A stretch of 64,000 nucleotides of DNA, from NCBI GenBank assembly GCA_964425075.1, contig CAYRKM010000001.1, forward strand, positions 106,137 through 170,136, read 5' to 3'. The notes beneath the pieces were generated by a model that saw only the letters and a program-made list of their open reading frames with translations, was not told where the DNA came from and ran no database searches. The first letter of the stretch is position 1. Every line of letters starts with the position of its first letter. Below are positions 20,614 to 48,008 of this stretch, piece by piece. The stretch is from an uncultured Gammaproteobacteria bacterium. Its GTDB lineage: Bacteria; Patescibacteriota; Microgenomatia; Levybacterales; GWA1-39-11. Made by a program: the position numbers and the translations under genes.

Positions 20614-23600
20614 ATGGAATTCCTTGAACTATTCAAAAGACAACTTACACAAACTTCAAATGGTATTTCAAAAATAAGCCTGAAGAACTATCTTTCTGAT
20701 ATTCGTCACTTTATTAACTGGTTTGAGTACACCACAGGGAACACTTTTTCACCAAAAAATATTACCGCAGAGGTAATTGAGCTATATATTGCATCCCAGG
20801 GAGCAGTAATTTCAGACGGAAACCTTTCAACCCAAGACAAACTTTCGCCAAGCTCTATGAAAAGACATCTTTCCTCGCTTCGAAAGTTTGTCTCGGTGCT
20901 CAAAAAAGAAAACCTACTTGAAGAAAATCCGTTTGAGGAAATTAACCAGACAAATGAAGAACAGAATTACGATTATTGGCACTTTGATTCATTTAAAGAT
21001 TATTTGCTCCAAAATAATGCCTCAAAATTAACCGTAAAAAATTATCTTTCTGATATAAAAGGTTTTGCAAGTTGGTACGAACAGGCAATATTACCTACGC
21101 TTATTTCCCCTCTCACCTCAACTAATGGTGCTTATCGGATCTCTCAAGAAATAGTTCAGGAATATAAAGACAGATTGTTTAATATACAATCATCAGCTCC
21201 ACGCACAATTAACCGCAAACTGTCTTCACTCCGCCGATATTTGGAGTTTGGAACGAATAAGGGCTTTATTAATCCTGGAGAAATAGTTCTACCTTCTATC
21301 CAAATAGGGAAAGAGGAGGCAGAACCTGTAAAGATTCAGCTAAAAGATCTTAATCAAACTCAAACTTTAGAAACAAAAAGCTATTCTTCCTTTCCTCCAG
21401 CAAGACTTCTTCAAAAGCTAGTTATTTTCCCTTATTTACTTCTTGAAGATGCCGTTGCCTCAAAAGTCGCAACAATTATGACTGGAAAAGAAATGATTGC
21501 AGGAATTGCACTTTCTCAATTAGATAAAGTGAAAATGAGCACTCGCGCTATAGTCAATGCTCAAAATCAATCAATTGACGCGATTTTGGGCGTAAGAAAT
21601 GTAAAAAAGGAATTCTATGCTCCTCACCAAGTACAATTATCTGGACTCCCTTTCCACAAAAAATTACTTTATCATGCACGATATACTAGACCAAAATGGT
21701 ATAAAACATATCATAGTTATCCATTTGTACATTATGCCCATTTTGCACTCCTTATAATCTTTGCAGTTGGAGTTGGGGTTGCAGCTTATCAGAATTTGGT
21801 AGGAAAAAATCAAAGACCAACCTTTGCCGCCCCCACGGCTCCACCGAGAATACTTTCATTTCAGGGAAGACTAACTGACGCAAGTGATAACCCAATTACA
21901 AGTGCAACGGATATCCGGTTTGCAATTTATAATGATCTTTCAGCATCAGGCGCTGCTCTTTTGTGGCAAGAAGTTCACTACGTTGTAACCCCTGACCAAG
22001 ATGGAATATTCTCCGTACTTTTGGGAACAAATGATGCAATACCTTCAACTGTATTTTCAGATAATGCAGGAACTTATCTTGGTGTTACAATCAACCAAAC
22101 ATCAGAACTTACGCCACGTCAAAGAATTGCCGCAGTTGCATACGCTACTAATTCTGAACAGCTTCAAGGAATGCCTCCTATTACCGCAGGTGGGGCTGGA
22201 ACCTCAAATGTTGTACTAGCACTTGATTCATCAGGTAATCTAACCATTGGTGGAAGCGCAGCTCCAACCTTTACAGCCTCGGGGGGTCAATTCAGACTAT
22301 CGGGTCAGCCTCTTGTTCTAAATACAAATTCAAGTTCAAATGGAAATATCGTTCTTGCTCCTGATGGACTTGGAAGGATAGATCTTCAAAAACCACTAGT
22401 AAATAGTGGAACTTCAGGGAACATTACTCCAGGGGGAGTTGAGGTAAATGATAAATTTGGAGTTCTTGCAACAGAATCGGGAGTCGCATCATTTGTTATC
22501 AACAACAATGGTTCAAGCGACATTTTTACAGCCTCATCATCGGGATCTCCTCGCTTTACTATCTCAACAACAGGCGCTCTTACTATTCCAACATATAACA
22601 CAAATGGTGGAATCTTCTATGCAAATGGTTCGGGAGTTGTTGCACAGACAACTGCAGGAAGCTCGGGGGAATGTTTGCAGTCAATTGGAGGAGGAACACC
22701 AACTTGGGGATCTTGCGGAAGCGGCAGCGGAAGTCTTTGGAGATTATCAAGTGGCGCTTTATCTCCCATAAATGATACTGCGGATGTATTGATTGGAAGT
22801 AATGCTACAGCAAGCGCGAAATTCGCATTCATAAATGTTGCTGGGGGAACACCAACAGCTTCAATCTCTGCAAGTAGCGGAAACAATTGGACAACATTAA
22901 GCGGAGATGGAATTTTGGGAACAACAAACAAACAAACACTTTCTATAGGAAACAGCTCGACAGGAATTATTGCAATTAATTCTCCCGAGAACAGTAAAAC
23001 CTCAATTGGAACAGGCTCAACACTTGGAACACTTAAGATTTCAGGTCAGTCTCCGGGAAAAGCTTTAGTAAACCTCCAATATCTAGGGTCTGGTCAAAAT
23101 ATTTTGGTTGCATCAAATTCCGCCGGAACCAATGTCTTTACTATCGAGGAGGACGGAGACATTATTGTGGGAAATGCGGGTGCAGGCAAATTGACAGCTG
23201 CAATAATTGACCCTTATCTAATCCAAAATCAATACACGTCAGTTACTCCCGAACTTATTTTCCAAACAATGGCAGCTACAAGTGGAGACTTTATATATAA
23301 AAACCAATCAACCGAGCTTGCACGCCTTGCCCAAGCCGGACAATTTCAACTTCCAATAACAGGCTCTTCAGGAGGACTTGTAATTGGAGCTGACACACAG
23401 CTTTTTAGAGGCTCTGCCGATAGGCTTGATTTAGCATCAGGCGACTCATTTAATCTTGTTTCGGGTAGCATTCAAATTGGCGGAACTACGGTTATTGACT
23501 CCTCACAAAATGCAACATTCAGCAGCCTAACTGTTACTGGTGGATGTACGGGTTGTGTAAGCGCATCAGATTCACCTTTTAAGGTATTAAGTGGTGCAAT

Positions 23601-26600
23601 TGTACCACTCAACTCAACGCTTGACTTCACTCTTGGTGGTCAATCAAGCGCATCAGCAAAATTTGCAGTACTTAATATCGGCACAGGAACACCCACAGCT
23701 TCAATCTCTGCAAATTCTGGAGATAATGCTCTATATATAACAGGAGACGGTTCTCTTGCAACAACCAATAGACAAAGCCTAACAATTGGAAATTCATCAA
23801 CATATAACACAACGGGAAATGTGCTGATAAATTCTAATGCAACCGGCAATGTTGGGTTAAGAACCGCAACGCCTACAAGTTTCAACGTAGAATTTGCGGG
23901 AAGCCTTGGACCAGCAGTAGATAATTCCTCTGTTCTTGGATCTGCATCAAGGAGATTAAATTCTATATATTTAGGTGACGGTGGTCTCCAAGCTGTAGGC
24001 AATGCCGGAACTTCCGGATCTGTAAATATCAATACAGCTGCAAGTGCTGTTACGGTCACTAGATACGGACAAAGGATATTGAATAATACGTTAAATACTA
24101 CAACAGACGGAATTGATAAATATGGACTTTATATCAACAACACAGGTTCTTTTACAGGACTGACAGGAACTTCTACCAATAACTACTCTTTATACATCTC
24201 TACACCTTCAGGTGCTGATAACAATTATTCTATATATTCAGCGGGTGGAACAAATTACCTTGCAGGAAATACAGGACTTGGTACAACAACACCGACAGCT
24301 CTTCTTGATGTAGCAGGTACTGCTTCTGTTTCAGGGGCTTTGAAGCTATATGGAACTCCTACCATCCAATCTACTGCAAATCAAACATTGACACTAGGTG
24401 GAGATACAACTGGAAGTATTGTGCTTTCACCTCTCAATGGTTCGGGGACAATTCAACTTACAAATTTTACTACAAACGGTGGCTTAATATATACTAATGG
24501 ATCAGGTGTACTGGCTCAAACCGGTGCAGGAAGCGCTACTCAATGTTTGCTTGGAGGCACTACTCCTACTTATGGCAGTTGTGCAACTGGAACAACCGTA
24601 ACACCTTTCCAAGAATTAACTGGTGCAATAGTACCAAATAATTCAACTCTGGACTTCCTAATTGGAGGGCAAGCAACAGCAAGTGCTAAATTTGGAATAT
24701 TAAATATAGCCGGAGGAACACCAACCGCCTCAATTAGTGCAAATAATGGGAATATAGCAACTTACCTTGCCGGTGACGGGACTCTTGCAACTACAAATAG
24801 GCAAACTTTAACTATTGGTAATTCCTCTACATACAACACAACGGGAGAAGTACTAATAAATCCTAATGGAACTGGAAATGTAGGCGTCGGGACAACAAGC
24901 GCAAGGTCAAAATTCCATGTTGCCAATGCTTACTCAGGCCAAGCAACACCTAATGCCTCTTCTATCTTAACAATTGAAAACAATGCTAATGCATATTTAA
25001 GTTTTCTTACACCGGCCAATGTTCAGAGCGGTATCCTTTTTGGAAGTCCTACAAATTCAGCTCAAGGACAAATTACCTACAATCATTCTTCAAATTATTT
25101 AAATTTTTATACAGGAGGAGCTGATAGGGCTAGAATTACAAGCACGGGTTTTGGAATCGGCATGACTTCACCAATATCTCAACTTCATGTTTCAAGAAGT
25201 GCAGCGGCTACGGGCAAAGCATTGGCTGTTTTTGATCAAACGGAAAGTCAAGATATAATAACAGCTTCTGCTTCTGGTATTACAAAGTTTGCAATTACAA
25301 ACAGTGGGGTTTTGCAACTTGTTGGTGGACAAACTTCAGATATTGATACTTTAACAAATGCTACTCTAAATATTGGGGCGACAAATGCCACCACTATTTC
25401 TATTGGTCGATCAAGCCAAGGTATTACACTTCCTGGATTTACTGGTCAAAATGGAATACTTTATGGAACTTCAGGAACTGGAGTATTAGCTCAAGCGACT
25501 ACTGCCTCTACTGGTCTTTGTCTACTCTCAGGAGCCGCAAATCCAGCTTGGGGAACTTGTCCAACAACAGGAAATTCAAGCTCAAACTGGACACTGAACT
25601 CAACAGATGGAACTCTTTATCCAATAAATAGTACTCTTGATGTATTAATAGGTAATACTGCATCAACTTCTGCCAAATTTGCATTCTTAAATGTTGCTGG
25701 AGGAGTACCCACAGCTTCAATTTCTGCAAATACAGCTGATAACAATACTTTCTTAACAGGAGCTGGTAACCTTGCAACAACCAACAAACAAACCCTAACA
25801 CTTGGGGGCAGCACAACAGGAGGAATAGTTATTGATTCAGGAAGCTCCTCAATAAATCTTGCGGATGATACCTCTATAACAGGTAATATTACTGGCTCAG
25901 GTACAACTGGACTTACTCTCACGGGTGCTGGAGCTGGAATTACCTTCTCAGGAAGTGGACTTCATGAAATAGGTGCCTCATCAGGAACTCTTCGAATTGG
26001 AACACACACACTAACCGGCGCAATAACCGGAGGAAATCAAAATATCAGCTCAATTGGTAACATCTCAGCGAATTCTTCCTCAAATACATTAACTGGTTTT
26101 GGAACAATTGGAACTTCTGGAACTACTGCTTTCGTTGGCACCAACCTAACCCTAGCAGGTGCTGCAACTGATATAACTTCAGGTGCCAATCAAGACTTGG
26201 CAATAACTGCAAATGGTACAGGAAACCTAATACTTACCACAGATTTTGATACTAGCGTAAAAGTTGGTACATCAAATAATATCATGGCACCTCTTTCGGT
26301 ATCTGGAGGTATCGGATCTAATGCTGGATTTATCCTAGATCAACTTAATGATGGGGACTTATTCACTGCCTCTGCTGCTGGGGTTACTAAATTTACTTTC
26401 ACAAACGGCGGGTCGCTTAACCTTACAGGTGGTCAAACAATAGATACTTTAGCTTCCGGAACTCTAGGAATTGGCACTACAACAGCTACTACTCTTACGT
26501 TGGGCAGAAGTGGACAAGGGATTACACTTCCAGGCTTTACGGGTCAAAATGGAATACTTTATGGAACTTCAGGAACTGGAGTACTTGCACAGGCCACGAC

Positions 26601-29577
26601 TGGCACTCCTAGTCTTTGTCTTCTCTCAGGAGCCTCAAATCCAACCTGGAGCACTTGCCCAACCTCAGGAAGTTCTAATTGGACTCTTGATACAGCTGCT
26701 GGTGTGATACGTCCAAACAACAATACAGTTGATTTTCTATTAGGTGGAACAGCAACTGCAAGCGCTAAATTTGCAGTTCTAGGGATTAATGGAGCTACAG
26801 TTCCAACTGCATCACTTTCTGCAACAACCGCTTCCGGCGGCGATGGAAATGGTATTACTCTAAGTGGAGATGGATCAATACAAAGCTTGAGAAATAATAC
26901 ATTAACGCTAGGAGGAGCCACAACTGGAAGTATCCAATTCAAACCAGGCAATATTTCAACTCCTTCACTCTACCTTGCAACCGGCGGAAATGTGGGAATT
27001 GGAATAGCAGCTCCAACAGAACTTCTTCATTTGTATAAAACAACTGGTAATTATGCAACATTACGGTTTGATTCAGGAACTACCCAAGGATATGCCTTCT
27101 CATATGACGGAGATAATAGTGTAAATATAGGAGCAAATAGTAGCAGTCTATTGCACTTAAGAACGAGTAATGCAGCAAGAGCAACAATCCTTGCAAGCGG
27201 AGAATTCGGTATTGGTACTACGACCCCTGTCTCTCAATTACATGTAACAAGGGCGCTCTCCCTTGGAGCAACTGGAAAAGCCTTGGGGATATTTGACCAG
27301 ATAGAGAACCAGGACATCTTTACGGCCTCCTCTGCAGGTATCACGAAGTTTGTTATGGGAAATGATGGAAGAATTGGCATAAATACTGCTGCCTCACCTA
27401 CAGGAGTTAACCCACTTGCAATGCTTCAGGTTTACTCAAGTCTTGGCACTACTCCAGCAGCTTCAATTTCAGCTACAACTGCTAACGCTGTCCTTAGAGT
27501 AGACCAGAATGGAGTTGGGGATTTCATAGTTGCTTCAAAAGCTGGTCAAACATATTTCAAGATAACTGCAAGTGGAGATGCAGAAATTGGAGTTAATGCG
27601 GGTGGAAAACTTAATGCAGGAACCGTTGACCCTCCTTATACTATTGATGGAGAAGGATATGCTACTTATATGCCTTCAATGATAGGTGTAAAGGAAGAAT
27701 ATGCAGGAAAAGCCGTCCTTTCTTATGATTCTCGTGCAGGTGCTTACGTATATAAATTAGACTTCAATAACTTTGAGAGACAATCTGACCAGTGGGTTTA
27801 TAACCGCATTATCGATCCTGATATTTCCAATGTTTCGGTTTTGATGACTCCAAATTCAGCAGCGCGCACATGGTACAAAAAAGATGGTACAAATCGCACC
27901 ATAACTCTATATGCAGATAGACCTGTTGAAATTTCTTATAGATTAACTGCTCCAAGATTTGATCATGATAAATGGAAAACTTATACAGGTATTCCAAAGG
28001 GACATATTGCTCCACCGCCAACAATTAACGGTAGTTCAGAAAACGACAACAACATGGAGGTTGATCCTTACTTTGCAACTCTTTCTATAAATGAAGAAAA
28101 CGGACAATATGTTCTAAAAGATTCATACAATAACAAAGTGAATCATATTGATGCATTCTCAAAAACAATTTCTGCCAAGATTGAGGCGGGATGGGTACAA
28201 GCCAAAAAGATAACTTCTGACACAATTTCTGCAGGAAGTGCTAATTTCAACAACCTTACAGCCTCAACTCTTGCGCTAACGAGTGACTCAATAACAATTA
28301 GTGGCCAAAATCTTCGCGACTTTATAGTTGCGACAGTTCAAAATGCAGGCTTAACTCAAAATGGCAATGAAATTATCTCCCCTCTTGCATCAATTGACAT
28401 GATAAAAACAAATGTAATTTCACCACTTGCTGAAGAAGGTTCAGTTGCTCTTCACATAAATCCAAACGACCTTACTCTTAAAAATACGCAGACAGGTGAA
28501 ACGGTTGCAAAGATTGATAATCAGGGTAATTTAAATGCCCGAAGCGCGAGCTTCTCAGGAACACTTGAATCAGAAGTTGCCTTATTTGACAGTGCAAGCG
28601 TATCAGGCAATTTAGCAACCAACACTCTTCAAGCCAATAATGCTTCAGTTGCTGGAACTTTGAGGGCTGACAAGATTATCGCAAATGATATTGAAGGCAT
28701 TGATAACCGCATCTCATCAATTGCAAACAACCTCATCAATACAGCCTCAGGCTCAGGCAGCTTTACAGATGGAGGCAATTTGGCAGTTGGTTCTCTTAAT
28801 GCCCAATTTGGATTATTTGAGCAAGGAATAGTATCTCTTGGTTCAGGAACATTTACTCAACTTACTGCAATGGACTCTATCTCTATTGGTCAAGGATTTA
28901 TTTTAGGCAATAATTCAATTAATACATTGGGTGCAGATCTAGAAATCCAACCGCTTCGCCAGGGAAATATTTCATTCATGGCGGGACGAGTCACGATTGA
29001 CACCGATGGAAATATGGCGGTAGACGGAAATATTAGCATACAGGGTAATTTGGCTGCCGCACGCGGAATATTTAGCGACACTATAGAATCCCGTGCATTA
29101 GTTACTAACATAATCTCACCACTTGCTGATAAAGATTTGGTGTTCAAGCTTAATGGTGAAAGTTTTGCCTCAAATTCAGGTAAACTTCAAATTCAAAATA
29201 CCCAAGGAAACCAGGTATTGGCAATTAATAACAAGGGAGATATTATCTCTTCCGGATCTGCAAGGTTTGGCAAGCTTAACCTTTCCCTAGTGGGTAAGGC
29301 TGAGGCTATAAATGAAAACGAAGCAGTTGCAACAGGAAGCGCAGGATTTGCAACCCTAAAGAGAGGAAGAACTGAGCTTACTATCATTAATCCAAATGTT
29401 ACTAAGGACTCACTTATTTACGTTACTCCATTTGGGGACACAAGCAACAAGGTCATATATTTATTGCGCCAAACTCCAAATGAACCTGAGAATGGTATAC
29501 AAGGATCATTTACGGTCGGGGTTTCGGGAACTACTACGACACAGGACTTACAATTTAACTGGCTTGTTGTGAATTAA
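20614..29577 (+). CDS. giant (2987 aa) single-pass membrane protein: cytoplasmic N-terminus with two tandem tyrosine-recombinase N-terminal SAM-like (core-binding) domains, one TM helix (~aa 374-396), huge extracellular region with >=5 tandem ~130-aa Cys-pair repeat modules and a C-terminal Gly/Asn/Ser-rich fibre-like region
   Basis: aa ~15-110 and ~135-225 each match the integrase SAM-like/core-binding pattern (LKNYLSDIRHFINWFE..ITAEVIELYIA..MKRHLSSLRKFVSVLKKENLLEENPFEEI; and LTVKNYLSDIKGFASWYE..ISQEIVQEYKDRL..RKLSSLRRYLEFGTNKGFINPGEI). TM is YAHFALLIIFAVGVGVAAYQNLV, preceded by the basic stretch HARYTRPKWYKTYH. Repeat consensus ..NG(I/L)(L/F)YxxGSGVLAQ(A/T)T(A/T)GSxxxCLLSG..NP.WG.CP...(N)WTL....G.(I/L).P.N.T.D.L(I/L)GG.A(T/S)ASAKFA.LN(V/I)AGGTPTASISAN.(G/A)(D/N)N....(L/T)G.G.LATTN(K/R)Q(T/S)LT(I/L)G.S(T/S)T. 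Confidence 0.8.
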   Translation: MEFLELFKRQLTQTSNGISKISLKNYLSDIRHFINWFEYTTGNTFSPKNITAEVIELYIASQGAVISDGNLSTQDKLSPSSMKRHLSSLRKFVSVLKKENLLEENPFEEINQTNEEQNYDYWHFDSFKDYLLQNNASKLTVKNYLSDIKGFASWYEQAILPTLISPLTSTNGAYRISQEIVQEYKDRLFNIQSSAPRTINRKLSSLRRYLEFGTNKGFINPGEIVLPSIQIGKEEAEPVKIQLKDLNQTQTLETKSYSSFPPARLLQKLVIFPYLLLEDAVASKVATIMTGKEMIAGIALSQLDKVKMSTRAIVNAQNQSIDAILGVRNVKKEFYAPHQVQLSGLPFHKKLLYHARYTRPKWYKTYHSYPFVHYAHFALLIIFAVGVGVAAYQNLVGKNQRPTFAAPTAPPRILSFQGRLTDASDNPITSATDIRFAIYNDLSASGAALLWQEVHYVVTPDQDGIFSVLLGTNDAIPSTVFSDNAGTYLGVTINQTSELTPRQRIAAVAYATNSEQLQGMPPITAGGAGTSNVVLALDSSGNLTIGGSAAPTFTASGGQFRLSGQPLVLNTNSSSNGNIVLAPDGLGRIDLQKPLVNSGTSGNITPGGVEVNDKFGVLATESGVASFVINNNGSSDIFTASSSGSPRFTISTTGALTIPTYNTNGGIFYANGSGVVAQTTAGSSGECLQSIGGGTPTWGSCGSGSGSLWRLSSGALSPINDTADVLIGSNATASAKFAFINVAGGTPTASISASSGNNWTTLSGDGILGTTNKQTLSIGNSSTGIIAINSPENSKTSIGTGSTLGTLKISGQSPGKALVNLQYLGSGQNILVASNSAGTNVFTIEEDGDIIVGNAGAGKLTAAIIDPYLIQNQYTSVTPELIFQTMAATSGDFIYKNQSTELARLAQAGQFQLPITGSSGGLVIGADTQLFRGSADRLDLASGDSFNLVSGSIQIGGTTVIDSSQNATFSSLTVTGGCTGCVSASDSPFKVLSGAIVPLNSTLDFTLGGQSSASAKFAVLNIGTGTPTASISANSGDNALYITGDGSLATTNRQSLTIGNSSTYNTTGNVLINSNATGNVGLRTATPTSFNVEFAGSLGPAVDNSSVLGSASRRLNSIYLGDGGLQAVGNAGTSGSVNINTAASAVTVTRYGQRILNNTLNTTTDGIDKYGLYINNTGSFTGLTGTSTNNYSLYISTPSGADNNYSIYSAGGTNYLAGNTGLGTTTPTALLDVAGTASVSGALKLYGTPTIQSTANQTLTLGGDTTGSIVLSPLNGSGTIQLTNFTTNGGLIYTNGSGVLAQTGAGSATQCLLGGTTPTYGSCATGTTVTPFQELTGAIVPNNSTLDFLIGGQATASAKFGILNIAGGTPTASISANNGNIATYLAGDGTLATTNRQTLTIGNSSTYNTTGEVLINPNGTGNVGVGTTSARSKFHVANAYSGQATPNASSILTIENNANAYLSFLTPANVQSGILFGSPTNSAQGQITYNHSSNYLNFYTGGADRARITSTGFGIGMTSPISQLHVSRSAAATGKALAVFDQTESQDIITASASGITKFAITNSGVLQLVGGQTSDIDTLTNATLNIGATNATTISIGRSSQGITLPGFTGQNGILYGTSGTGVLAQATTASTGLCLLSGAANPAWGTCPTTGNSSSNWTLNSTDGTLYPINSTLDVLIGNTASTSAKFAFLNVAGGVPTASISANTADNNTFLTGAGNLATTNKQTLTLGGSTTGGIVIDSGSSSINLADDTSITGNITGSGTTGLTLTGAGAGITFSGSGLHEIGASSGTLRIGTHTLTGAITGGNQNISSIGNISANSSSNTLTGFGTIGTSGTTAFVGTNLTLAGAATDITSGANQDLAITANGTGNLILTTDFDTSVKVGTSNNIMAPLSVSGGIGSNAGFILDQLNDGDLFTASAAGVTKFTFTNGGSLNLTGGQTIDTLASGTLGIGTTTATTLTLGRSGQGITLPGFTGQNGILYGTSGTGVLAQATTGTPSLCLLSGASNPTWSTCPTSGSSNWTLDTAAGVIRPNNNTVDFLLGGTATASAKFAVLGINGATVPTASLSATTASGGDGNGITLSGDGSIQSLRNNTLTLGGATTGSIQFKPGNISTPSLYLATGGNVGIGIAAPTELLHLYKTTGNYATLRFDSGTTQGYAFSYDGDNSVNIGANSSSLLHLRTSNAARATILASGEFGIGTTTPVSQLHVTRALSLGATGKALGIFDQIENQDIFTASSAGITKFVMGNDGRIGINTAASPTGVNPLAMLQVYSSLGTTPAASISATTANAVLRVDQNGVGDFIVASKAGQTYFKITASGDAEIGVNAGGKLNAGTVDPPYTIDGEGYATYMPSMIGVKEEYAGKAVLSYDSRAGAYVYKLDFNNFERQSDQWVYNRIIDPDISNVSVLMTPNSAARTWYKKDGTNRTITLYADRPVEISYRLTAPRFDHDKWKTYTGIPKGHIAPPPTINGSSENDNNMEVDPYFATLSINEENGQYVLKDSYNNKVNHIDAFSKTISAKIEAGWVQAKKITSDTISAGSANFNNLTASTLALTSDSITISGQNLRDFIVATVQNAGLTQNGNEIISPLASIDMIKTNVISPLAEEGSVALHINPNDLTLKNTQTGETVAKIDNQGNLNARSASFSGTLESEVALFDSASVSGNLATNTLQANNASVAGTLRADKIIANDIEGIDNRISSIANNLINTASGSGSFTDGGNLAVGSLNAQFGLFEQGIVSLGSGTFTQLTAMDSISIGQGFILGNNSINTLGADLEIQPLRQGNISFMAGRVTIDTDGNMAVDGNISIQGNLAAARGIFSDTIESRALVTNIISPLADKDLVFKLNGESFASNSGKLQIQNTQGNQVLAINNKGDIISSGSARFGKLNLSLVGKAEAINENEAVATGSAGFATLKRGRTELTIINPNVTKDSLIYVTPFGDTSNKVIYLLRQTPNEPENGIQGSFTVGVSGTTTTQDLQFNWLVVN

Positions 29578-29611
29578 CGAAGTCAATTTAATGATAAATG
29601 CTAAATGATAT

Positions 29612-29995
29612 ATGGTAAACAATAATACAAACAAGTATGCAAATGTAGAGGAATTACCTGTATGGCAAAAGGCTCATGAATTTACTCTCCTAATCTATAA
29701 GCATTCCTCCGTGTTTCCTTCTTCTGAAGTATATGGTCTCACATCTCAAATCAGAAGATCTACCTCATCCATTCCTGCAAATATAAGCGAAGGATTTTAT
29801 AGAAAAAGTACCAAAGAACTTATTCAATTTATTTATAATGCACGTGGCTCTCTTGGAGAGACTCTTTATCACATTCGATTGGCGAAAGATCTAAAATATT
29901 TAGATGAAAAAACATTTTTATTACTTCGTTCAGAAGCTGAAGATATCAGCAAGCAAATGAACGGCTGGTTAAAAAGCTTAAAATCCAAACTCTAA
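29612..29995 (+). CDS. four-helix-bundle protein of the 23S-rRNA-intervening-sequence / Avd (DGR accessory variability determinant)-like family
   Basis: LPVWQKAHEFTLLIYKHSSVFPSSEVYGLTSQIRRSTSSIPANISEGFYRKSTKELIQFIYNARGSLGETLYHIRLAKDLKYL matches the family signature as I recall it (VWQKAH.L.L.IYK....FPK.E.YGLTSQ(I/L)RRAA.SI.(A/S)NIAEG..R.S.KE...FL.IA.GS..E...). 127 aa. Confidence 0.75.
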   Translation: MVNNNTNKYANVEELPVWQKAHEFTLLIYKHSSVFPSSEVYGLTSQIRRSTSSIPANISEGFYRKSTKELIQFIYNARGSLGETLYHIRLAKDLKYLDEKTFLLLRSEAEDISKQMNGWLKSLKSKL

Positions 29996-30052
29996 TTTTA
30001 CTCCTTCATTTACCATCCACCCACTTATTTACCATTCACCATCAACCATTTA

Positions 30053-32185
30053 TCATTTAATTATGTAGCTTATTTCAATTGCTGTAAAACCAGAGCGTAC
30101 AATGGGGTCAAAAACAGGTGGTTTGGGTGAAAGGCTTGGCTTAGTTTCAAACTGTTCAATGTAAAAAACGATGTTTCGGTAAGTATCGGGTTGACGACTA
30201 AAATAAATCGGTAAAATTTGTTTTGATAAACTGTTGTCATAAAAAGATAAAAATACATAAGGCGAATTAATATGATTTTTAGCGAAATTCACGGCGTCTT
30301 CAGTTTCTCTTTGATTTAAACCAAAATTTATTGCATATTCACGAATTGTTTTATCAATACTTGAGGCATCTATAACTTTTCCATATGCAGGCCGCTCAAG
30401 TTTCATATCTGGATTGTAGTTAAAAGATATATTCTCAACGGATTTTCCGTTTGCAACAAAGGAGCCATTATTGCCTAAAGTAATTTTGAAACCTTCCTCA
30501 GGATTGTAGGCAGTATTTACGGAATAAATTGGTATTCCAACGGACACCTTCAAATTTGTTCCCTCTTCTCCGTACAAATATAACGGGCATGTTCCTGAGC
30601 ACATATTTGTAGCATTGTTTACGCAAGAAGCTTGCTCAGCACCATCAGTAAGAGTTCCACAGGCTTGTGCTGCTGCTGTTTGTGTACAGTCCAATTGAGA
30701 AGTATTATTTGCGTTCGTTGATGAAGGGAAATTATTCCTTGCGATTCTTACAGGTGCAAGCGTTGGTTTTACAACAAATGTATCAAGTTGCAATTGTTCT
30801 CTTTGCGGTTTGACTGCGTTTCTACCCAAAACTGCTGAATCAAAAAAATTTGCATCTGTTAGTGCTATGAATTGTATAAAAGAATCATTATGATTTACAG
30901 CTACACGCTCACCTGTTTTTTGGTCAAAAATGGATACCGCACTAAGAGACTGTTCGTATCTTGCTCCAAGATTTCCCATAGCAGATTGACCGGTAGCAAC
31001 GCTTGTTAGTAAGAGTTTTCCGTTAGATAAAGAGGTTTTAATGGTGTTTACAGATGTTTTAGATGAATCATCATACGCAATGTCAAAATCTATCTTTTTT
31101 GAAGAATTTTGACTAAATGAATAGCTGTGTGTTTCAAGAGATTTCGTTGTAGAGTTTACAACTTGGTATAGAATGTCTCCTGTTGTTAAATCAAAAGTAG
31201 CTGAAGTAAAGACATCATCTCCTTGAGCTGTTATTAATTTTGTCCTGCTTTTTGTTGTAACATCTAATGTTTCTATGGTATTTGCAACCGAAAATACTCT
31301 TTTTGCTCCATTCACAATTTGAGTTCCGTCACCTCTCGCCCCATCATAACCCACAAAAACAAATTTTGATTCATCCTCTGAAAGCGTGGGTTGATTAGCA
31401 TAGGTCCCATCTTGCATAGAAGTAAGATCCCCCCTGCTTGTTCCTGTAAAATTAGAAACGCTCATGCCATATGACCATCCCATGCCAGCGTTTGGTATAA
31501 ATTTATTAACATAAATTTCACCACTACTTGTAATTGCAATGGGATAGCGAATTGTGTTTCCGGGAGTTGCAACCTCGTCATAAATTAAGTTTTTTTGTCC
31601 AGGATTTTGTATATCAATGCTATAAATCCTTGATTTTGCGTCTATAAGCTGAGGGGAATCTGAGGCTAGACTTAATTCCCAGGTTGTTATATATCTACCG
31701 TTTTTAGACACAAAGTAGTCATCTATTCCAAAATTCTCTTCTGCAGTTACAATCACTGTTTCTTTTTTAGAAGAAATATCATAAAGAACAAGAGACTTTG
31801 CATAGTCTCGCGCATCTGTATCTTTTAGAAATAAAAGCTCGTTATTCGATAGAACTTTTACGTTCTTAATATTGGTTGGTAGAGTTGCAAGTGTGGCAGC
31901 TGTATTTGTTGAAAGATCCGTAACTTCAATCACAGAGGAGCTTCCTGCCCAATATCCATACACTAAAGCATTATCGGACAAAAATTTTTTTTCAACTGTC
32001 TGTTTTTGTTGGTTTTGAGAAGACTTGCTATTGTTTTGACGGGCTGAATTCCATGCAAACGCGCCTCCAAATAAAATAATCACAACTAGCAAAACCACTA
32101 CTCCTTTTATATTGGTTCTAGGATCTACTTTCTGAAACCAAGAACTTTGGTTGACTTGTACCTGGGGCTGATTATTTTCTTCCAC
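30053..32185 (-). CDS. N-terminally TM-anchored beta-propeller (TolB/WD40-like) protein with Cys-containing conserved C-terminal domain; tandem paralog of 32235..34370
   Basis: N-terminal TM (GVVVLLVVIILFGGAFAW). Repeated propeller-blade-like segments. C-terminal ~110 aa nearly identical to the paralog. Confidence 0.55.
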   Translation of the reverse strand: MEENNQPQVQVNQSSWFQKVDPRTNIKGVVVLLVVIILFGGAFAWNSARQNNSKSSQNQQKQTVEKKFLSDNALVYGYWAGSSSVIEVTDLSTNTAATLATLPTNIKNVKVLSNNELLFLKDTDARDYAKSLVLYDISSKKETVIVTAEENFGIDDYFVSKNGRYITTWELSLASDSPQLIDAKSRIYSIDIQNPGQKNLIYDEVATPGNTIRYPIAITSSGEIYVNKFIPNAGMGWSYGMSVSNFTGTSRGDLTSMQDGTYANQPTLSEDESKFVFVGYDGARGDGTQIVNGAKRVFSVANTIETLDVTTKSRTKLITAQGDDVFTSATFDLTTGDILYQVVNSTTKSLETHSYSFSQNSSKKIDFDIAYDDSSKTSVNTIKTSLSNGKLLLTSVATGQSAMGNLGARYEQSLSAVSIFDQKTGERVAVNHNDSFIQFIALTDANFFDSAVLGRNAVKPQREQLQLDTFVVKPTLAPVRIARNNFPSSTNANNTSQLDCTQTAAAQACGTLTDGAEQASCVNNATNMCSGTCPLYLYGEEGTNLKVSVGIPIYSVNTAYNPEEGFKITLGNNGSFVANGKSVENISFNYNPDMKLERPAYGKVIDASSIDKTIREYAINFGLNQRETEDAVNFAKNHINSPYVFLSFYDNSLSKQILPIYFSRQPDTYRNIVFYIEQFETKPSLSPKPPVFDPIVRSGFTAIEISYIIK

Positions 32186-32234
32186 AGTTAAATAGTAGAC
32201 TTAAAGATATATTCATGTCAAGAAAATTTAATGA

Positions 32235-34370
32235 TTACCTAACGATGGAGCTTATCTCGATTGCTGTAAAACCAAAACGCACAATGGGGTCAAAGACAGG
32301 AGGTTTGGGTGAAAGGTTTGGCTTAGTTTCAAACTGTTCAAAATAGAACACAATGTTTCGATATGTATCAGGATGTATCGAAAAGTATAGAGGTAGGATT
32401 TGTTTTGAGAGATTATCATCATAAAATGAAACGTACACATAGGGGCTTGTAATTTCTTTTGCAAACATCACACTATCTTCTGTTTCCTTTTGATTAAATC
32501 CTAATTTTTCAGAATATTCCTTAATGGTTTGCTTGAGATCTGAAAGTTTTACAATTTTTCCGTAAGAAGGTCTAGATAATTTTCTGATGGCAGATGTGTA
32601 ATCAAAGGAGATACTTTCAACTACACTTCCATTTGCCCGAAACTTCCCATCCGATAAAAGCGTAATATCAAATCCATTTTGAGGTAAATATAAAACATTT
32701 GTAGAAAAAATTGGAGTACCTACAGATACATTTAAACTAACTCCCTGTTGTCCATATAAATATAACGGGCTTCTATAACACGACCCCGATGTTCCATCTG
32801 CATCTGTCCATGATTGAATAAAACACCCGTCTTTTGTGTCAAGACCCGCACACTGCTGCTGCAAAAGATCACTTCCACAACCCCTGTCTATTGGGGTATT
32901 TTGTATAGGACCTTGTTGAGGCGGTTGACTTTGGTTTATTTCTCGCACTGGAGCAAGTGTAGGTTTTACTGCAAATGTTTCCAATTGAAGCTGCTTTCCC
33001 TGAGAATTAATTGATTTATTTGCCTGCTTGTTTGCATTTAAATTAGAAGTTTTAAAGTATTTAGAACCTTTTAAGGCTATAAATTGCACGTACCCACCAT
33101 TTAGGCTAACTCGTTCACTGCTTCCTGATTTTGGAGTAAAAACTGACAAACTACTTATTGATGGTTCATAACTAAAACCTAGATTCCCAAGCGCTGAGTC
33201 CGAAAGAACACTTTCTGATAACAATAAACTCCCTCCCTGAAGAGATGACCGCACCGATCCTCTATTACCTTCCGGAAGGTCAACTTTTTTAGAGGAATGA
33301 GTGTCAAAATAATATTTATTTATGTCCCTGCCAGTTTTATCATCATAAGAAGCGTAAATTATATTTCCGTCTTGTAAATCCCATTGCGCCTTCTGGTAAA
33401 TTCCGTCAATACCCGAAACCAATTTGGTTCTGATTTTTGTATTTGTATCAAAAACTTCAATAGTATTAGGAGTAACAGACGCTCTTCTGTAACCATTCAC
33501 AATTTCCACACCATCCCCTTTACTACCATCATAGCCTATAAAAAGTATTTTTCCCCCGTCCGGTGATATTATTGGTTGGCTTGAATATGTTCCGTTGGCC
33601 ATTGAAGCAATTTCTGACTTAACTGAACCTGTAAAATTGCTCATACTCATACCATAAGCCCAACCCACACCCGAATTTGGCAAAAATTTATCCATAAAAA
33701 TCTCACCATTATCCGTTATTCCAACAGGATAATGCACTGCAATACCTACGGGCGCAGCCTCATCATAAATTAAATTTTTACTTCCTGGTTTTGAAATATC
33801 AACACTATAAACTCTTGAACGACCTCCCGATAGTATTGATGAATTTGGTGCTGGGCTTATTTCCCATATGGCAATATATTTACCATTTGGTGAAACCACA
33901 TATAAATCAATTCCATACCCTGAATCTGTAGTGGATATAACATTCTCAGTACTATCACTAATCCTATAACTAACAACGCTCTTCCCATAGTCAGATGCGT
34001 CAGTATCTTTTATAAAAATTAAATTGTCATCTGAAACAACACTAACCTGCTTGATGTTATTTGGCAAAACGGCAAGTGTGCTGTTTGTGCTTGTTGATAG
34101 ATCTACTGACTCAATAACTGAATTTTTATCAACCCAATAACCATATACTACTGAATTGTCTGCAAGAAATTTTGTCTCTGTAGACTGCTTTTGTTGTTCT
34201 GTCTCTTTTTTTGAAGAATTTCTCTCAGAATTCCATGCAATCGCACCTCCAAACAAAATAATCACAACTAGCAAAACCACTACTCCTTTTATATTGGTTC
34301 TAGGATCTACTTTCTGAAACCAAGAACTTTGGTTCACCTGAACCTGATGAGGCTGATTATTTTCTTCCAT
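32235..34370 (-). CDS. N-terminally TM-anchored beta-propeller protein; tandem paralog of 30053..32185
   Basis: Same architecture. The first ~45 aa and last ~80 aa are nearly identical to the paralog at protein and DNA level. Confidence 0.55.
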   Translation of the reverse strand: MEENNQPHQVQVNQSSWFQKVDPRTNIKGVVVLLVVIILFGGAIAWNSERNSSKKETEQQKQSTETKFLADNSVVYGYWVDKNSVIESVDLSTSTNSTLAVLPNNIKQVSVVSDDNLIFIKDTDASDYGKSVVSYRISDSTENVISTTDSGYGIDLYVVSPNGKYIAIWEISPAPNSSILSGGRSRVYSVDISKPGSKNLIYDEAAPVGIAVHYPVGITDNGEIFMDKFLPNSGVGWAYGMSMSNFTGSVKSEIASMANGTYSSQPIISPDGGKILFIGYDGSKGDGVEIVNGYRRASVTPNTIEVFDTNTKIRTKLVSGIDGIYQKAQWDLQDGNIIYASYDDKTGRDINKYYFDTHSSKKVDLPEGNRGSVRSSLQGGSLLLSESVLSDSALGNLGFSYEPSISSLSVFTPKSGSSERVSLNGGYVQFIALKGSKYFKTSNLNANKQANKSINSQGKQLQLETFAVKPTLAPVREINQSQPPQQGPIQNTPIDRGCGSDLLQQQCAGLDTKDGCFIQSWTDADGTSGSCYRSPLYLYGQQGVSLNVSVGTPIFSTNVLYLPQNGFDITLLSDGKFRANGSVVESISFDYTSAIRKLSRPSYGKIVKLSDLKQTIKEYSEKLGFNQKETEDSVMFAKEITSPYVYVSFYDDNLSKQILPLYFSIHPDTYRNIVFYFEQFETKPNLSPKPPVFDPIVRFGFTAIEISSIVR

Positions 34371-46607: not shown

Positions 46608-46699
46608 CTTATATACAATTGAGGTTAGAGAAGGCAGCTTTTCTCACACACTCTTCTATTCTTCCCAAGTTTTAGACCTCACCCCAAAAAAGCTCCCTT

Positions 46700-46730
46700 C
46701 CCTAACTTTAAGTTAGGGGTTTTTGTTTGG
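46700..46730 (+). terminator. rho-independent terminator (CCCTAAC-tttaa-GTTAGGG then GTTTTTGTTTGG)
   Basis: Perfect 7-9 bp inverted repeat followed by a T-run, ~90 nt after the stop of 45909..46607. Confidence 0.6.
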
Positions 46731-47181
46731 AAACATCGCCGTTTTGCATGGCAAATATCCAACTCACAAAAACCTTGTTCTTTGACAAGGTAACAGGAAA
46801 AAGGCATTTTTGGTGCCGGGCACAGCGTACCATATTGAACCAAAAGGTTCATATGTCCGATTTCACAATCGGTCATAACAAGCTGCTACGAAGGGGTAAA
46901 ACCTGACGTATAAATATGGTGCGCGCTGTCCGGCGCCAAATGAGCGTGGAAAAACGGGTTTAGAGAAAGGAGGCCAATAATGGCCTATTGCTTGAACTTC
47001 TGCATACTCCTGCTCGACTCCCTTTGGGGAGCGAACAGGATCCGTGCAGGCCCGTTTATTTGAAACGGAAACATCAACCCAGTAGCATAGTAATGACTAA
47101 GCCTTCGCGCAAGCGGAGAGGCAGGTAACTCTGCTAAACCATGCATGCCGGCAAAGTCCGGTTAGCAAAAGGGAGATCACC

Positions 47182-47913
47182 GTGAGGTGGTATTCGTACA
47201 TTGGCCTGGGAGCCGCCGTGATCTTCATGGCTGGATTCTTCAGTGCCTGCTCGGACGACAGTGGAGCCACTGCTGACGAGATCGCTGCTGCGATCATCGC
47301 CGCCCAAGCGACTGCAACCCCAGCAGCAACGGCGGCAGCAACGGCAACGGCTAGCGCACTCACGCCCGACCAAATTCGCCAGATCGTTCTGGACGAAATG
47401 GCCAAGGCGGGGCTGCCAGAGCCGACCAGCGCACAGCTGCAAGAGATCCTCAAGAGCCTCACTGAGGCCCTGAAGGGCTCGACCCAGACTGCAGATCAGT
47501 TCCGCGGTGCCGTCAAGGTCTGGCTGACTTCTAACCAGAAGGTCCAGGCTGGCGTCGTGCCCGCCTATAACCCAGCAGCGTTCCCCAAGAGCGCCGCTGA
47601 GGCAGCAGCCATCTTCGGAGGCGACGCTTCCCGTTGGGAGCCGACGGCTGACTGCTGTGGTTGGCATCTGCGCGAGGAGGCGTTCACCACTCTCATCCAG
47701 CCGAAAGGTTTCCTGGGTGAGGGCTACAACGACACCAAGCCTGGGAAGAATCCGGACTGCTACACGTTCGTTGCGCCAACTTCGGTCCAGGGCGCCACGA
47801 TCTGGCAAGAGGCCGGCACCTACCCGAACGCCGTCGCGCTTCAGAAGAAGATGGCCATCCCCGTCTGGGATGATGGCAAGCAGCACGCTTGCCAGGTACT
47901 CGCAACGCCATAA
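47182..47913 (+). CDS. putative lipoprotein (GTG start) encoded in a GC-rich island; likely horizontally acquired
   Basis: GGGAG SD 7 nt before the GTG. Signal plus lipobox-like AGFFSAC. Ala/Thr-rich linker. Strongly GC-rich versus flanks. A ~280-bp GC-rich leader lies upstream. Confidence 0.55.
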   Translation: MRWYSYIGLGAAVIFMAGFFSACSDDSGATADEIAAAIIAAQATATPAATAAATATASALTPDQIRQIVLDEMAKAGLPEPTSAQLQEILKSLTEALKGSTQTADQFRGAVKVWLTSNQKVQAGVVPAYNPAAFPKSAAEAAAIFGGDASRWEPTADCCGWHLREEAFTTLIQPKGFLGEGYNDTKPGKNPDCYTFVAPTSVQGATIWQEAGTYPNAVALQKKMAIPVWDDGKQHACQVLATP

Positions 47914-48008
47914 GCGCTTAGCTTCTCGCATGGGAGGGGGGTCCGATACGTCGGCCCCCCTCAAATACTTTCACTGGGACATTCCTGTTACCTTGTCCCC
48001 TTTGCCCG

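Follow-up and report, generated by a model that had tools for sequence, protein, structure and literature searches.

The question raised by this locus is why a small gene for a four-helix-bundle (4HB) protein should follow immediately upon a giant gene for a protein of 2987 aa. For the 64-kb stretch of DNA analysed here (hereafter the window), the original prediction saw two possible answers: the gene may be the accessory (Avd) of a diversity-generating retroelement (DGR) whose reverse transcriptase (RT) and template repeat (TR) lie elsewhere in the genome, or it may encode a stand-alone 4HB protein of the intervening-sequence (IVS) type, with a suggested functional link to the giant protein. 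The features on which the following argument turns are collected in Table 1.

Table 1. Features of the 4HB locus and its neighbours, in window coordinates.
Feature	Coordinates	Strand	Remarks
2987-aa ORF (giant gene), upstream neighbour, outside the cassette	20614..29577	+	N-terminal integrase-type SAM-like (core-binding) matches, long repetitive region
Whole cassette with inverted-repeat arms	29570..30077	+	Arms and heptad arrays around the ORF
5' heptad array	29590..29617	+	AATGATA AATGCTA AATGATA TATGGTA, read directly; last unit holds the start codon (29612-29614)
Four-helix-bundle protein gene, 127 aa	29612..29995	+	PF05635/TIGR02436 ('S23 ribosomal protein / 23S rRNA IVS protein' family); ATG start
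3' heptad array	30030..30057	+	TACCATT CACCATC AACCATT TATCATT, read directly; reverse complement of the 5' unit
710-aa ORF, convergent downstream neighbour	30053..32185	-	No Pfam family; tandem paralogue of 32235..34370

The predicted membership of the 127-aa product in the four-helix-bundle/23S-rRNA-IVS family was confirmed by profile searches, in which both family models scored above their cut-offs. PF05635 (23S_rRNA_IVP) is matched with 127 bits (cut-off 33.8) over model positions 1-106 of 106, and TIGR02436 ('four helix bundle protein') with 121.5 bits (cut-off 24). In the AlphaFold2 model (pLDDT 94), helices span residues 16-32, 37-62, 67-93 and 99-125, and the protein is basic (pI 9.4). 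The family motif reads QIRRSTSSIPANISEG, with a Q replacing the G of the published consensus GxxRxxxSxxxNxxE (PMC3936711), while P36, E39, Q46, R49, S53, N57, I58, E60, S80, E83 and L94 are invariant across 60 homologues.

The nearest solved relatives are two structural-genomics entries of the 'S23 ribosomal protein' family, XCC0516 (2GSC) and BT_0352 (2RLD), each deposited as 5 chains and each sharing the RxxxSxxxNxxE motif with the 127-aa protein. When a sequence profile of the subfamily was run against the PDB, only 2GSC (E 2e-29) and 2RLD (E 9e-14) were matched, and not Avd (4DWL). Foldseek aligned the model with 2GSC at a TM score of 0.86, an rmsd of 0.6-0.8 Å and 32-35% identity, and also matched 2RLD. 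This degree of identity to the stand-alone XCC0516 supports the second of the two answers, a stand-alone protein of the IVS type. A role in defence was also considered, PF05635 genes embedded in cas operons having been reported (PMC3936711). This reading was rejected, as a PADLOC search returned no defence-system match for the 4HB protein or three of its neighbours, and no cas or restriction genes were found among the scanned ORFs of the window.

The reading as an Avd that serves an RT and a template repeat elsewhere in the genome and thereby diversifies the C-terminus of the giant protein must be weighed against this background, and we regard it as extremely improbable. Avd (4DWL, 8UB7) and the 127-aa protein are both small, basic four-helix bundles and remote homologues, and their common fold is recovered by Foldseek with a TM score of 0.78 to 4DWL, but at only 6-8% identity. 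The matches to the Avd-specific models are likewise weak and below cut-off (PF22296 bAvd, 27 vs 40; NF033474 DivGenRetAVD, 28.5 vs 80), with the Avd equivalog model far under its threshold, whereas PF05635 is matched at the full score given above. The position directly after a gene for a large surface-type protein fits a DGR, and DGRs have been reported as prominent in CPR genomes (PMC6602519). The window offers no component of such a system. The predicted absence of an RT ORF was borne out by a Pfam search of 30 of the larger ORFs, which gave no RVT match, and an [FY]xDD motif is absent from every reading frame of at least 200 aa in the window. The expected lack of a template/variable repeat pair was equally upheld: a sensitive self-BLASTN of the window (word size 7) returned 15 pairs, none adenine-biased and none touching the 3' end of the giant gene, the repeats being only paralogous ones, either internal to the giant gene or shared by the 710- and 711-aa genes. 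To our knowledge, avd genes of DGRs sit beside the TR and RT and not beside remote targets, which further speaks against this reading.

The search was extended beyond the window. For nine close homologues, three of which follow giant-gene homologues, the genes recorded within 6-10 kb include none of an RVT family, and in the loci examined the close relatives of the 127-aa protein, unlike Avd, never lie beside an RT. A scan for DGR-RT motifs over 1.78 Mb (the window and the other loci retrieved, non-4HB loci included) yielded nothing credible with a heuristic regular expression uncalibrated on a known DGR RT. The giant protein itself has no Pfam match to C-type-lectin, FGE-sulfatase or DUF1566 domains, and its C-terminus is conserved to the last residue across 40 metagenomic loci. 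Adenine-specific hypervariability, for which the region near the 3' end of the giant gene had been singled out, was seen in neither of the two contigs compared: L001 is identical to the window, and L002, which is 99% identical and comes from another sample, differs over the final 339 nt (29239-29577) at five scattered positions, with the changes A>C, T>C, T>C, G>A and A>G, two of them at A. Thus, with sub-threshold Avd models, no RT, TR or variable repeat in the window and no A-specific variation at the 3' end of the giant gene, the 4HB gene was rejected as a DGR component, and the proposal of an accessory with its RT and TR elsewhere finds no support in the window and the other loci covered. 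Avd is a pentamer that binds RNA elements flanking the TR (bioRxiv 10.1101/2023.10.23.563531), and it remains a useful analogy for a 4HB protein that may grip structured flanks.

As predicted, the 4HB gene is co-directional with the giant gene and lies directly downstream of it; the gap, previously given as 35 nt, is actually 34 nt (29578-29611), and no terminator-like site is found between the two ORFs. The 2987-aa ORF has a long repetitive region and, near aa 375-395, a predicted membrane helix, both compatible with a surface protein. Matches to the core-binding domain Phage_int_SAM_1, found in two N-terminal stretches of the same ORF and the only domains that Pfam shows there, qualify this label. 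The C-terminal domain, which ends in QFNWLVVN followed by the stop codon, is conserved in L003 (47% identity), in L096 (27-28%) and in the 40 metagenomic loci, across which the last 300 aa are retained up to the final residues (FNW/YLI/VVN, then stop). On the other side, the stop codon of the convergent 710-aa ORF (30053-30055) falls inside the last 3' heptad. In the window, Rfam gave no family at gathering score and a tRNA search no match; the 4HB gene and its flanks lie outside any rRNA gene.

The gene is enclosed by two arms of 53 nt each (29570-29622 and 30025-30077), which are 72% complementary, with a core of 15 nt (29602-29616 with 30045-30059) that reaches 93%. From the first to the last heptad, the cassette spans 468 nt (29590-30057), and an additional 3' unit, TACCATC, lies at 30011-30017. 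Both arrays have their best self-match at period 7 (0.53 for the 3' array), and the 5' array contains TAA/TGA stops and ATGs in several frames. Clusters of at least three AATG[AGC]T hexamers within 60 nt (expected 0.086 per 60 nt) occur in the window at the 5' array alone, and clusters of at least three A[CTG]CATT hexamers at the 3' array alone; no further heptad arrays, ORF-less or MITE-like, are found elsewhere in the 64 kb. The flanks have seven reverse-complement 7-mers in common (empirical p ~0.004 within the window), and the MFE and centroid RNA folds both pair them around the ORF. The predicted flank duplex of -18.8 kcal/mol is no better than that of GC-matched pseudo-cassettes from the same window (p ~0.28), with z = -1.2 against shuffles and z = -0.46 when all 506 nt are folded. 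The stem being weak in energy, the case for this locus rests on the motif arrays and the k-mer complementarity and not on stability. The heptad motif was first spotted by eye, with the window among the sequences inspected, so that the test in the window is independent only inasmuch as the motif is equally visible in other loci. An integron cassette was also considered as an explanation and rejected, because two repeat arms bracket the ORF in place of a single 3' attC and no integrase lies nearby.

The alignment with L002 covers 995 nt, and the ten substitutions in it all lie in the 512 nt of neighbouring sequence (2% difference), none in 29578-30079; contig L001 is identical to the window in the compared region. 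The substitution-free cassette in a second sample and the invariant residues of the 60 homologues are taken as signs of selection.

The same arrangement recurs at other loci. TAATGRT/AYCATTA arrays flank homologues of at least 59% identity in eight gene contexts, that of the window included, and in the seven others an AATGRTA-type unit precedes the ATG of close homologues. Among these contexts are giant genes, a GT4 glycosyltransferase operon, the murE-murF junction, CAP/rml genes, a flippase-GT2 junction and an epimerase-tsaD junction. The murE-murF junction provides states with and without the insertion. In L146, whose MurE is 75% identical, murE overlaps murF at ATGATTAA without a cassette; in L011, the cassette sits exactly at this junction, and its 5' array encodes a new MurE C-terminus; and in L145, the junction holds a 111-nt ORF-less hairpin. 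The 3' array also varies in length, L102 and L104 differing by an indel of 28 nt (2 x 14 nt). The cassettes whose direction can be assigned are nearly all co-directional with the flanking operon, with L142 as the exception. Occupied and empty sites are seen, as are many different contexts; the cassette is gained and lost at gene junctions.

Furthermore, this anatomy extends well beyond the close relatives of the 127-aa protein. A cross-phylum sample of 80 PF05635 loci at 39-56% identity, taken among the matches listed, was compared with control ORFs. Among these listed matches, the median z of the flank-to-flank duplex is -1.68, that of controls -0.07 (Mann-Whitney p 8e-15), and z falls below -3 in 33% of the sampled loci against 1.4% of controls, while the flanks have 4.0 reverse-complement 7-mers in common against 0.8 (p 2e-13). 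Again among the matches listed, purines make up 0.61 of the upstream and 0.44 of the downstream flank (p 2e-11), and the flanks match themselves best at period 7 (0.42-0.44, against 0.25-0.32 for the other periods from 3 to 12). The unit sequence is lineage-specific (GGAGTCA, GTAGGTA, GATGAGTA, CGTAGTT and others), and the flanks of each are still complementary. Inverted period-7 arrays are therefore significantly enriched around PF05635 ORFs across phyla and are clear in about half of the 64-77 sampled among the matches listed; about half of the sampled members in the same set of listed matches lack strong flank complementarity by the measures used. In the literature searched, no account was found of PF05635 cassettes that lie outside rRNA and have inverted heptad arrays.

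Taken together, we favour with moderate confidence the reading that the 4HB gene is a stand-alone PF05635 member in a discrete cassette of ~470 nt, ended by inverted heptanucleotide arrays, which has the anatomy of an ORF-bearing rRNA IVS but occupies the spacer of two protein-coding genes in convergent orientation and is no component of a DGR.

Two further explanations concern the place and the origin of this cassette. One takes the 4HB gene as a dedicated partner of the giant gene that benefits the host, either as an element that stabilises the 3' end of the 9-kb mRNA or signals its processing, or as a nucleic-acid-binding factor that would act together with the cytoplasmic core-binding domains of the giant protein. 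The co-location of the two genes is indeed non-random: a PF05635 gene lies directly downstream in 11-14 of the 40 metagenomic loci in which the 3' end of the giant gene has a homologue (about one third), and a single further copy occurs elsewhere in the 187 kb that these loci comprise. In a rough NJ tree, moreover, the six closest giant-associated PF05635 proteins form a clade that holds the protein of the window, and the association extends to giant proteins whose C-terminus is 27-28% identical, which is compatible with long vertical co-inheritance and leaves room for a host-beneficial role; the full conservation of the cassette between the two samples, next to sequence that differs by 2%, can be read in the same way. 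However, the closest giant homologues (L105, L106 and L114; 48% identity) are without the PF05635 gene, a sister clade (60-67% identity) sits with the same flanks in unrelated envelope-biosynthesis operons, and in L142 the PF05635 gene is reversed relative to the giant gene. The position after giant genes is also used by PF05635 genes from several clearly different lineages and by three unrelated families of small ORFs, namely GIY-YIG, PD-(D/E)XK (PDDEXK_3) and IS200-like ORFs. Genes of the latter kind, IS200-like Y1 transposases (PF01797) that we take to be of the RayT type, follow giant genes in L124, L139, L140 and L144. The absence from the closest homologues and the presence of other small ORFs of the nuclease or transposase type point to the 3' end of the giant gene as an insertion hotspot rather than one half of a dedicated partnership, and we hold the latter to be quite improbable.

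The other explanation, which we consider unlikely, is that of a DNA-level mobile element resembling a miniature transposon. The heptad arrays would then be terminal inverted repeats that a trans-acting recombinase or transposase recognizes, or else the 4HB protein with host factors, and RNA pairing would be incidental. Neither the cassette nor the window contains a transposase and no target-site duplication is evident, yet several observations at other loci agree with such an element: the occupied and empty sites, with the insertion in L011 exactly at the junction whose ATGATTAA resembles the repeat unit, the variable copy number of the arrays (L102 vs L104), the ORF-less hairpin at the equivalent site in L145, and the Y1 transposase (PF01797), GIY-YIG and PD-(D/E)XK genes found elsewhere at the same position after giant genes. 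Transposition also figures among the early hypotheses on the origin of IVSs (PMC4990558). Within the CPR subfamily, one unit sequence is kept across eight gene contexts, as a mobile element would predict, but between lineages the units diverge freely while complementarity and the 7-nt period persist, a pattern to be expected from selection that acts on the pairing, or on a binding protein that co-evolves with the units, rather than from one transposase site held in common. The co-directionality of nearly all orientable cassettes with their operons (L142 excepted) suggests in addition that the transcription context matters.

The favoured reading, a PF05635 cassette with the anatomy of an rRNA IVS, can be set beside several known systems. 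The IVSs of Coxiella burnetii, Leptospira and CPR bacteria likewise place a PF05635/S23p ORF inside terminal inverted repeats capable of forming a stem, and their distribution, like that of the cassette, is sporadic and compatible with gain and loss. In Coxiella, the IVS measures 428 nt (468 nt for the cassette of the window) and contains an S23p ORF and a stem of 28-bp terminal inverted repeats that is cut by RNase III (PMC4990558); PF05635 ORFs were also found in the rRNA insertion sequences of CPR bacteria (bioRxiv 10.1101/2024.02.27.582315). The differences are equally clear. The IVSs lie inside 16S or 23S rRNA genes and the cassette between two convergent protein-coding genes; the Coxiella IVS is bounded by one near-perfect repeat, while the cassette ends in tandem heptad arrays with a weak predicted stem; and excision by RNase III is known for the former and can be proposed for the latter by analogy. 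The ORF is well conserved in the cassette, whereas in Coxiella it is decaying and apparently untranslated (PMC4990558), and the rRNA analogue is therefore no guide to the function of the protein.

In its outline, a small gene flanked by inverted short repeats, the cassette also resembles RAYT/REP systems. RAYT genes are flanked by inverted REPs, and the STRRs of cyanobacteria are tandem heptanucleotide repeats in intergenic DNA and inside stable RNA genes, which recall the arrays described here. Unlike a RAYT, the 127-aa protein has neither a Y1-transposase nor a nuclease fold, and unlike both REPs and STRRs, its arrays have no ORF-less counterparts elsewhere in the window. No link between STRRs and PF05635 was found in the searchable literature.

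For the function of the cassette and its protein we infer the following course. The cassette would be transcribed by read-through from the giant gene, since the spacer is only 34 nt long and devoid of a terminator-like site. In the transcript, the 5' array (AAUGRUA x4) is predicted by folding to pair with the 3' array (UAYCAUU x4), forming a stem that encloses the ORF; the complementarity of the two arrays is seen directly in the window and is supported across the family. As in Coxiella, Leptospira and Salmonella, RNase III may then cut this stem, and the cassette would come free of the host transcript, in which case the insertion would do little harm. On both strands the arrays also bring stop and start codons in several frames, as the sequence itself shows, and so insulate the neighbouring reading frames. 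The basic protein is probably pentameric, as are XCC0516, BT_0352 and Avd, and would bind nucleic acid, the heptad arrays that enclose its own gene being the most plausible target.

A wider and more tentative view is possible. Outside DGRs, PF05635 genes may as a rule be carried by cassettes with inverted heptanucleotide arrays at their ends, a class widespread but hitherto undescribed, which would colonise gene junctions, the 3' ends of giant genes for surface proteins and rRNA genes alike across bacterial phyla. Their pentameric proteins would recognise their own co-evolving arrays, as RNA or DNA, for excision, maintenance or spread. The rRNA 'IVS' would then be merely the habitat in which such cassettes were first noticed, and Avd a domesticated descendant that still grips structured RNA.

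For annotation, the present locus removes a tempting misreading as a DGR: an 'Avd-like' Pfam match beside a big surface protein is no evidence of such a system, and the curated Avd models separate the two. It also draws attention to the 3' ends of giant-protein genes in CPR genomes, a hotspot for small ORFs of a selfish type (PF05635, GIY-YIG, PD-(D/E)XK and IS200-like); this bears on how such genomes are annotated and on how the variable regions with their surface-protein genes are understood. For the family, PF05635 members outside rRNA share the anatomy of an enclosed ORF with lineage-specific, mutually complementary ends of 7-nt period, and have occupied and empty sites in conserved operons. 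The question of what the S23p/IVS family does, standing since the early 1990s, thereby becomes testable through RNase III cutting, binding of the heptads and movement of the cassette.

The gene that follows the giant gene, an ORF encoding a surface-type protein, is an ordinary member of the large, already known PF05635 family. Its basic product (pI 9.4), referred to here as the four-helix-bundle (4HB) protein, scores 127 bits against PF05635 (23S_rRNA_IVP; whole model covered, cut-off 33.8) and 121.5 bits against TIGR02436 ‘four helix bundle protein’ (cut-off 24), which bears out the original prediction of membership in the four-helix-bundle/23S-rRNA-IVS family. The AlphaFold2 model, with 60 homologues as input, consists of four long helices (pLDDT 94). 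The predicted arrangement also stands: the gene is co-directional with the giant gene and lies directly after it, although the gap is 34 nt and not 35. Named relatives belong to Microgenomates and Patescibacteria, and nine of nine homologues with 59–76% identity are co-directional with the upstream gene, 7–50 nt behind it. Two of them (P0004, P0026) come after giant-gene homologues and three (P0006, P0010, P0015) lie inside glycosyltransferase operons; the others are located at the murE–murF junction (P0017), behind a CAP-domain gene and upstream of rml genes (P0029), at a flippase–GT2 gene junction (P0052), and where an epimerase gene borders on a tsaD fragment (P0074).

The ORF is bracketed by short inverted arrays, with which it forms a cassette of 468 nt from heptad to heptad. 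In every homologue context inspected, (T)AATG(A/G)T(T)A is repeated two to four times directly 5′ of the ATG, and its reverse complement, A(T/C)CATT(A), two to five times behind the stop. At least three such hexamers per 60 nt (0.086 expected) occur in the 64 kb only at the 5′ and 3′ arrays. The cassette flanks have seven reverse-complement 7-mers in common (empirical p 0.004, 9043 pseudo-cassettes of the window), and the arms detected by a repeat finder enclose the ORF in both the MFE and the centroid predicted RNA structures; the A/U-rich stem of the window is weak, and energy tests were not significant.

Coordinates of the cassette and of other features in the window
Feature	Position	Strand	Description
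Giant gene	20614..29577	+	2987 aa, surface-type protein
4HB gene	29612..29995	+	127 aa, PF05635/TIGR02436
5′ array	29590–29617		AATGATA AATGCTA AATGATA TATGGTA; start codon within last unit
3′ array	30030–30057		TACCATT CACCATC AACCATT TATCATT; last unit overlaps stop of convergent ORF 30053..32185
Repeat-finder arms	29570–29622 / 30025–30077		53 nt, 72% complementarity; core 15 nt, 93%
Tandem paralogues	30053–34370	−	710 and 711 aa, 66–67% DNA identity, convergent to cassette; no Pfam family
Leucyl-tRNA synthetase ORF	12870–15869	−	999 aa; serine-hydrolase/alpha-beta-hydrolase domain inserted at aa 250–404, directly before editing domain
Local GC peak	46000–48000		0.49 vs ~0.38 elsewhere in window; long overlapping ORFs
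Overlapping ORF	47134..47964	−	no Pfam family (only one of the pair scanned)
Overlapping ORF	47182..47913	+	
ORF-poor stretch	53782–55017		1.2 kb without ORF of at least 100 aa; no Rfam match
Hairpins in this stretch (among several)	54405–54465, 54747–54795		
Direct repeats in this stretch	54863, 54926, 54953		40-nt units
Direct repeats in this stretch	54657, 54722		19-nt units

Comparison with L002, the same locus in another sample (99.0% identical), across 29239–30233 gave 10 substitutions, all of them in the 512 nt that lie outside the cassette; 29578–30079 is free of substitutions, a split with a chance of ~0.001–0.008 by rough calculation. Array copy number varies between populations: two loci with the same gene and context (L102, L104) have 3′ arrays, just behind the 4HB stop (6373 onward), that are set apart by a 28-nt indel made up of two copies of the 14-nt unit accattagtcatta. 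In L094/L095 (6379–6445), the 4HB stop is followed first by a copy of the 5′-type array (tggttaatggataatgattaatggtta) and, ~13 nt on, by ATCATCA repeated four times; these may together be a stem-loop without ORF that was added to the cassette, with the contigs ending there.

A scan of genome contigs provided a cross-phylum sample of at least 80 loci from many phyla (39–56% identity, matches listed). Tandem short units upstream with their reverse complement downstream are visible in about half of the matches listed, among which the unit differs by lineage (GGAGTCA, GTAGGTA, GATGAGTA, CGTAGTT, AGTAGAT, and others). For 63 PF05635 ORFs among these listed matches, the median flank-to-flank duplex z-score was −1.68 versus −0.07 for 294 control ORFs (p 8e-15), with 33% versus 1.4% below −3. 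Also among the matches listed, the flanks had on average 4.0 reverse-complement 7-mers in common (controls 0.8, p 2e-13) and 1.2 direct ones (controls 0.9), while the purine fraction upstream/downstream was 0.61/0.44 (controls 0.51/0.51, p 2e-11). Period-7 self-match reached 0.42–0.44 in both flanks of 77 listed ORFs versus 0.25–0.32 at each of the remaining periods from 3 to 12. By these simple measures, a strong flank signal is missing in about half of the ORFs among the matches listed. Because complementarity persists while the unit sequence changes, the flanks appear to be under selection for pairing or co-evolving recognition and not for one fixed site.

The murE–murF junction occurs in three states among relatives. 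In L146 (MurE 75% identical), the two genes overlap at ATGATTAA (1437–1444) without a cassette; in L145, which is 65% identical, a 111-nt ORF-less hairpin with ATTAGAA-type units (4348–4458) occupies the junction; in L011, a full PF05635 cassette sits precisely at the junction, and its 5′ array codes for the final residues and stop of MurE (...RVMVNN*). The empty-site sequence of L146 resembles the repeat unit of the cassette.

The original prediction regarded the gene as akin to Avd, the accessory variability determinant of diversity-generating retroelements (DGRs). The Avd fold is common to all PF05635 members (PMC10053308), the 4HB protein included, yet the latter groups with stand-alone proteins, because the Avd models PF22296 bAvd (27, cut-off 40) and NF033474 DivGenRetAVD (28.5, cut-off 80) stay below threshold and both profile and fold searches favour other structures. 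Among solved structures, the subfamily profile matched only XCC0516 (2GSC, E 2e-29) and BT_0352 (2RLD), and not Avd; the fold search ranked 2GSC top (TM 0.86, rmsd 0.6–0.8 Å, 32–35% identity), then 2RLD, and Avd (4DWL, 8UB7 complexes) after these (TM ~0.78, 6–8% identity). The alternative of a stand-alone IVS-type protein is thus upheld. As predicted, neither a reverse transcriptase (RT) nor a template/variable repeat (TR/VR) pair is present within the 64 kb: no RVT family was found among 30 of the larger ORFs (Pfam), the [FY]xDD motif is absent from every frame of at least 200 aa, and sensitive self-BLASTN returned only diverged paralogous repeats with unbiased mismatch spectra, either internal to the giant gene or shared by the 710- and 711-aa genes. 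The window also contains no tRNA and no Rfam family. That the 4HB protein is an Avd serving an RT and TR elsewhere in the genome, beyond the window scanned, is extremely improbable. Besides the low scores of the Avd models, no RVT-family gene was recorded within 6–10 kb of the close homologues (0/9), and a heuristic DGR-RT motif scan of 145 sequences (1.78 Mb) gave a single match that is not RT-like. The giant protein has no CLec-type match, and in all homologues its C-terminus is conserved right up to the final residue (FNW/YLI/VVN*). The expected adenine-specific hypervariability did not materialize in the two contigs from other samples that cover the locus: L002 shows five scattered substitutions in the terminal 339 nt of the giant gene, two of them at adenines, and L001 is identical to the window.

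A known analogue is the ORF-bearing rRNA IVS, which has the same parts and size as the cassette but sits in rRNA, whereas the cassette is found in an mRNA context; the rRNA insertion sequences found in CPR bacteria can carry PF05635 ORFs as well (bioRxiv 10.1101/2024.02.27.582315). Since no terminator-like site lies between the giant gene and the 4HB ORF, the cassette would be transcribed by read-through. The 5′ and 3′ arrays could then pair in the transcript, and RNase III-type processing would detach the cassette. The basic, probably pentameric 4HB protein may bind the arrays, given that Avd, its analogue, grips structured RNA beside the template repeat (bioRxiv 10.1101/2023.10.23.563531). 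The main rival to this RNA-level scheme on the mode of movement is a DNA-level element, in which a recombinase acting in trans would use the arrays as terminal inverted repeats; we consider this rival unlikely. A host-beneficial role of the cassette, such as 3′-end protection of the 9-kb giant-gene mRNA, is less probable still. The literature searched, which covered few subscription-journal papers, gave no description of the enclosed-ORF anatomy outside rRNA, of inverted lineage-specific period-7 arrays, of sites within conserved operons that can be empty or occupied, or of a hotspot after giant genes.

Two stretches at the N-terminus of the giant ORF match Phage_int_SAM_1, the core-binding domain of tyrosine recombinases (best aa 6–100); they are followed by a hydrophobic helix near aa 375–395 and a repetitive part of ~2500 aa. 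It is unusual for a surface protein of such size to have a cytoplasmic head of the DNA-binding type. LRR, F5/8-type-C, and pilin-like (N_methyl) genes accompany the 710/711-aa pair in a block syntenic with L003.

Scanning metagenomes with the C-terminal domain of the giant protein yielded 40 loci (L105–L144, 187 kb). In 11 of them (L107, L109, L115, L121, L123, L130, L131, L132, L137, L142 on the opposite strand, and L143), the giant-gene stop is directly followed by a PF05635 gene that reaches the cut-off or has a strong subfamily-HMM match, and in three (L108, L120, L111) by a weaker or truncated PF05635-like gene. This position is strongly enriched for the family, as the 187 kb hold just one more copy (L143). 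Other occupants are a GIY-YIG gene (L113), a PD-(D/E)XK (PDDEXK_3) gene (L116), and IS200-like Y1 transposase genes (L124 by Pfam; L139, L140, and L144 by sequence similarity to it); the remaining loci have none, including the closest homologues L105, L106, and L114 (48% identity). The GIY-YIG gene of L113 is preceded by three tandem ~37-nt units (681–790; cgtgtcatcctgaacgaaagtgaaggatctatt) and is another repeat-associated small ORF at this site. The PF05635 occupants belong to several subfamilies. In a rough NJ tree, the proteins of the window, L003, L107, L096, L121, and L137, the closest giant-associated ones, form one clade, with proteins from envelope-biosynthesis operons as its sister and the remaining giant-associated proteins on much deeper branches. 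The giant-gene 3′ position is a hotspot for small selfish-type ORFs. We read it as an insertion hotspot of long standing, located where a transcription unit ends in a variable surface-protein region, with the cassette persisting vertically in one lineage; we do not read the association of the 4HB gene with the giant gene as a dedicated partnership.
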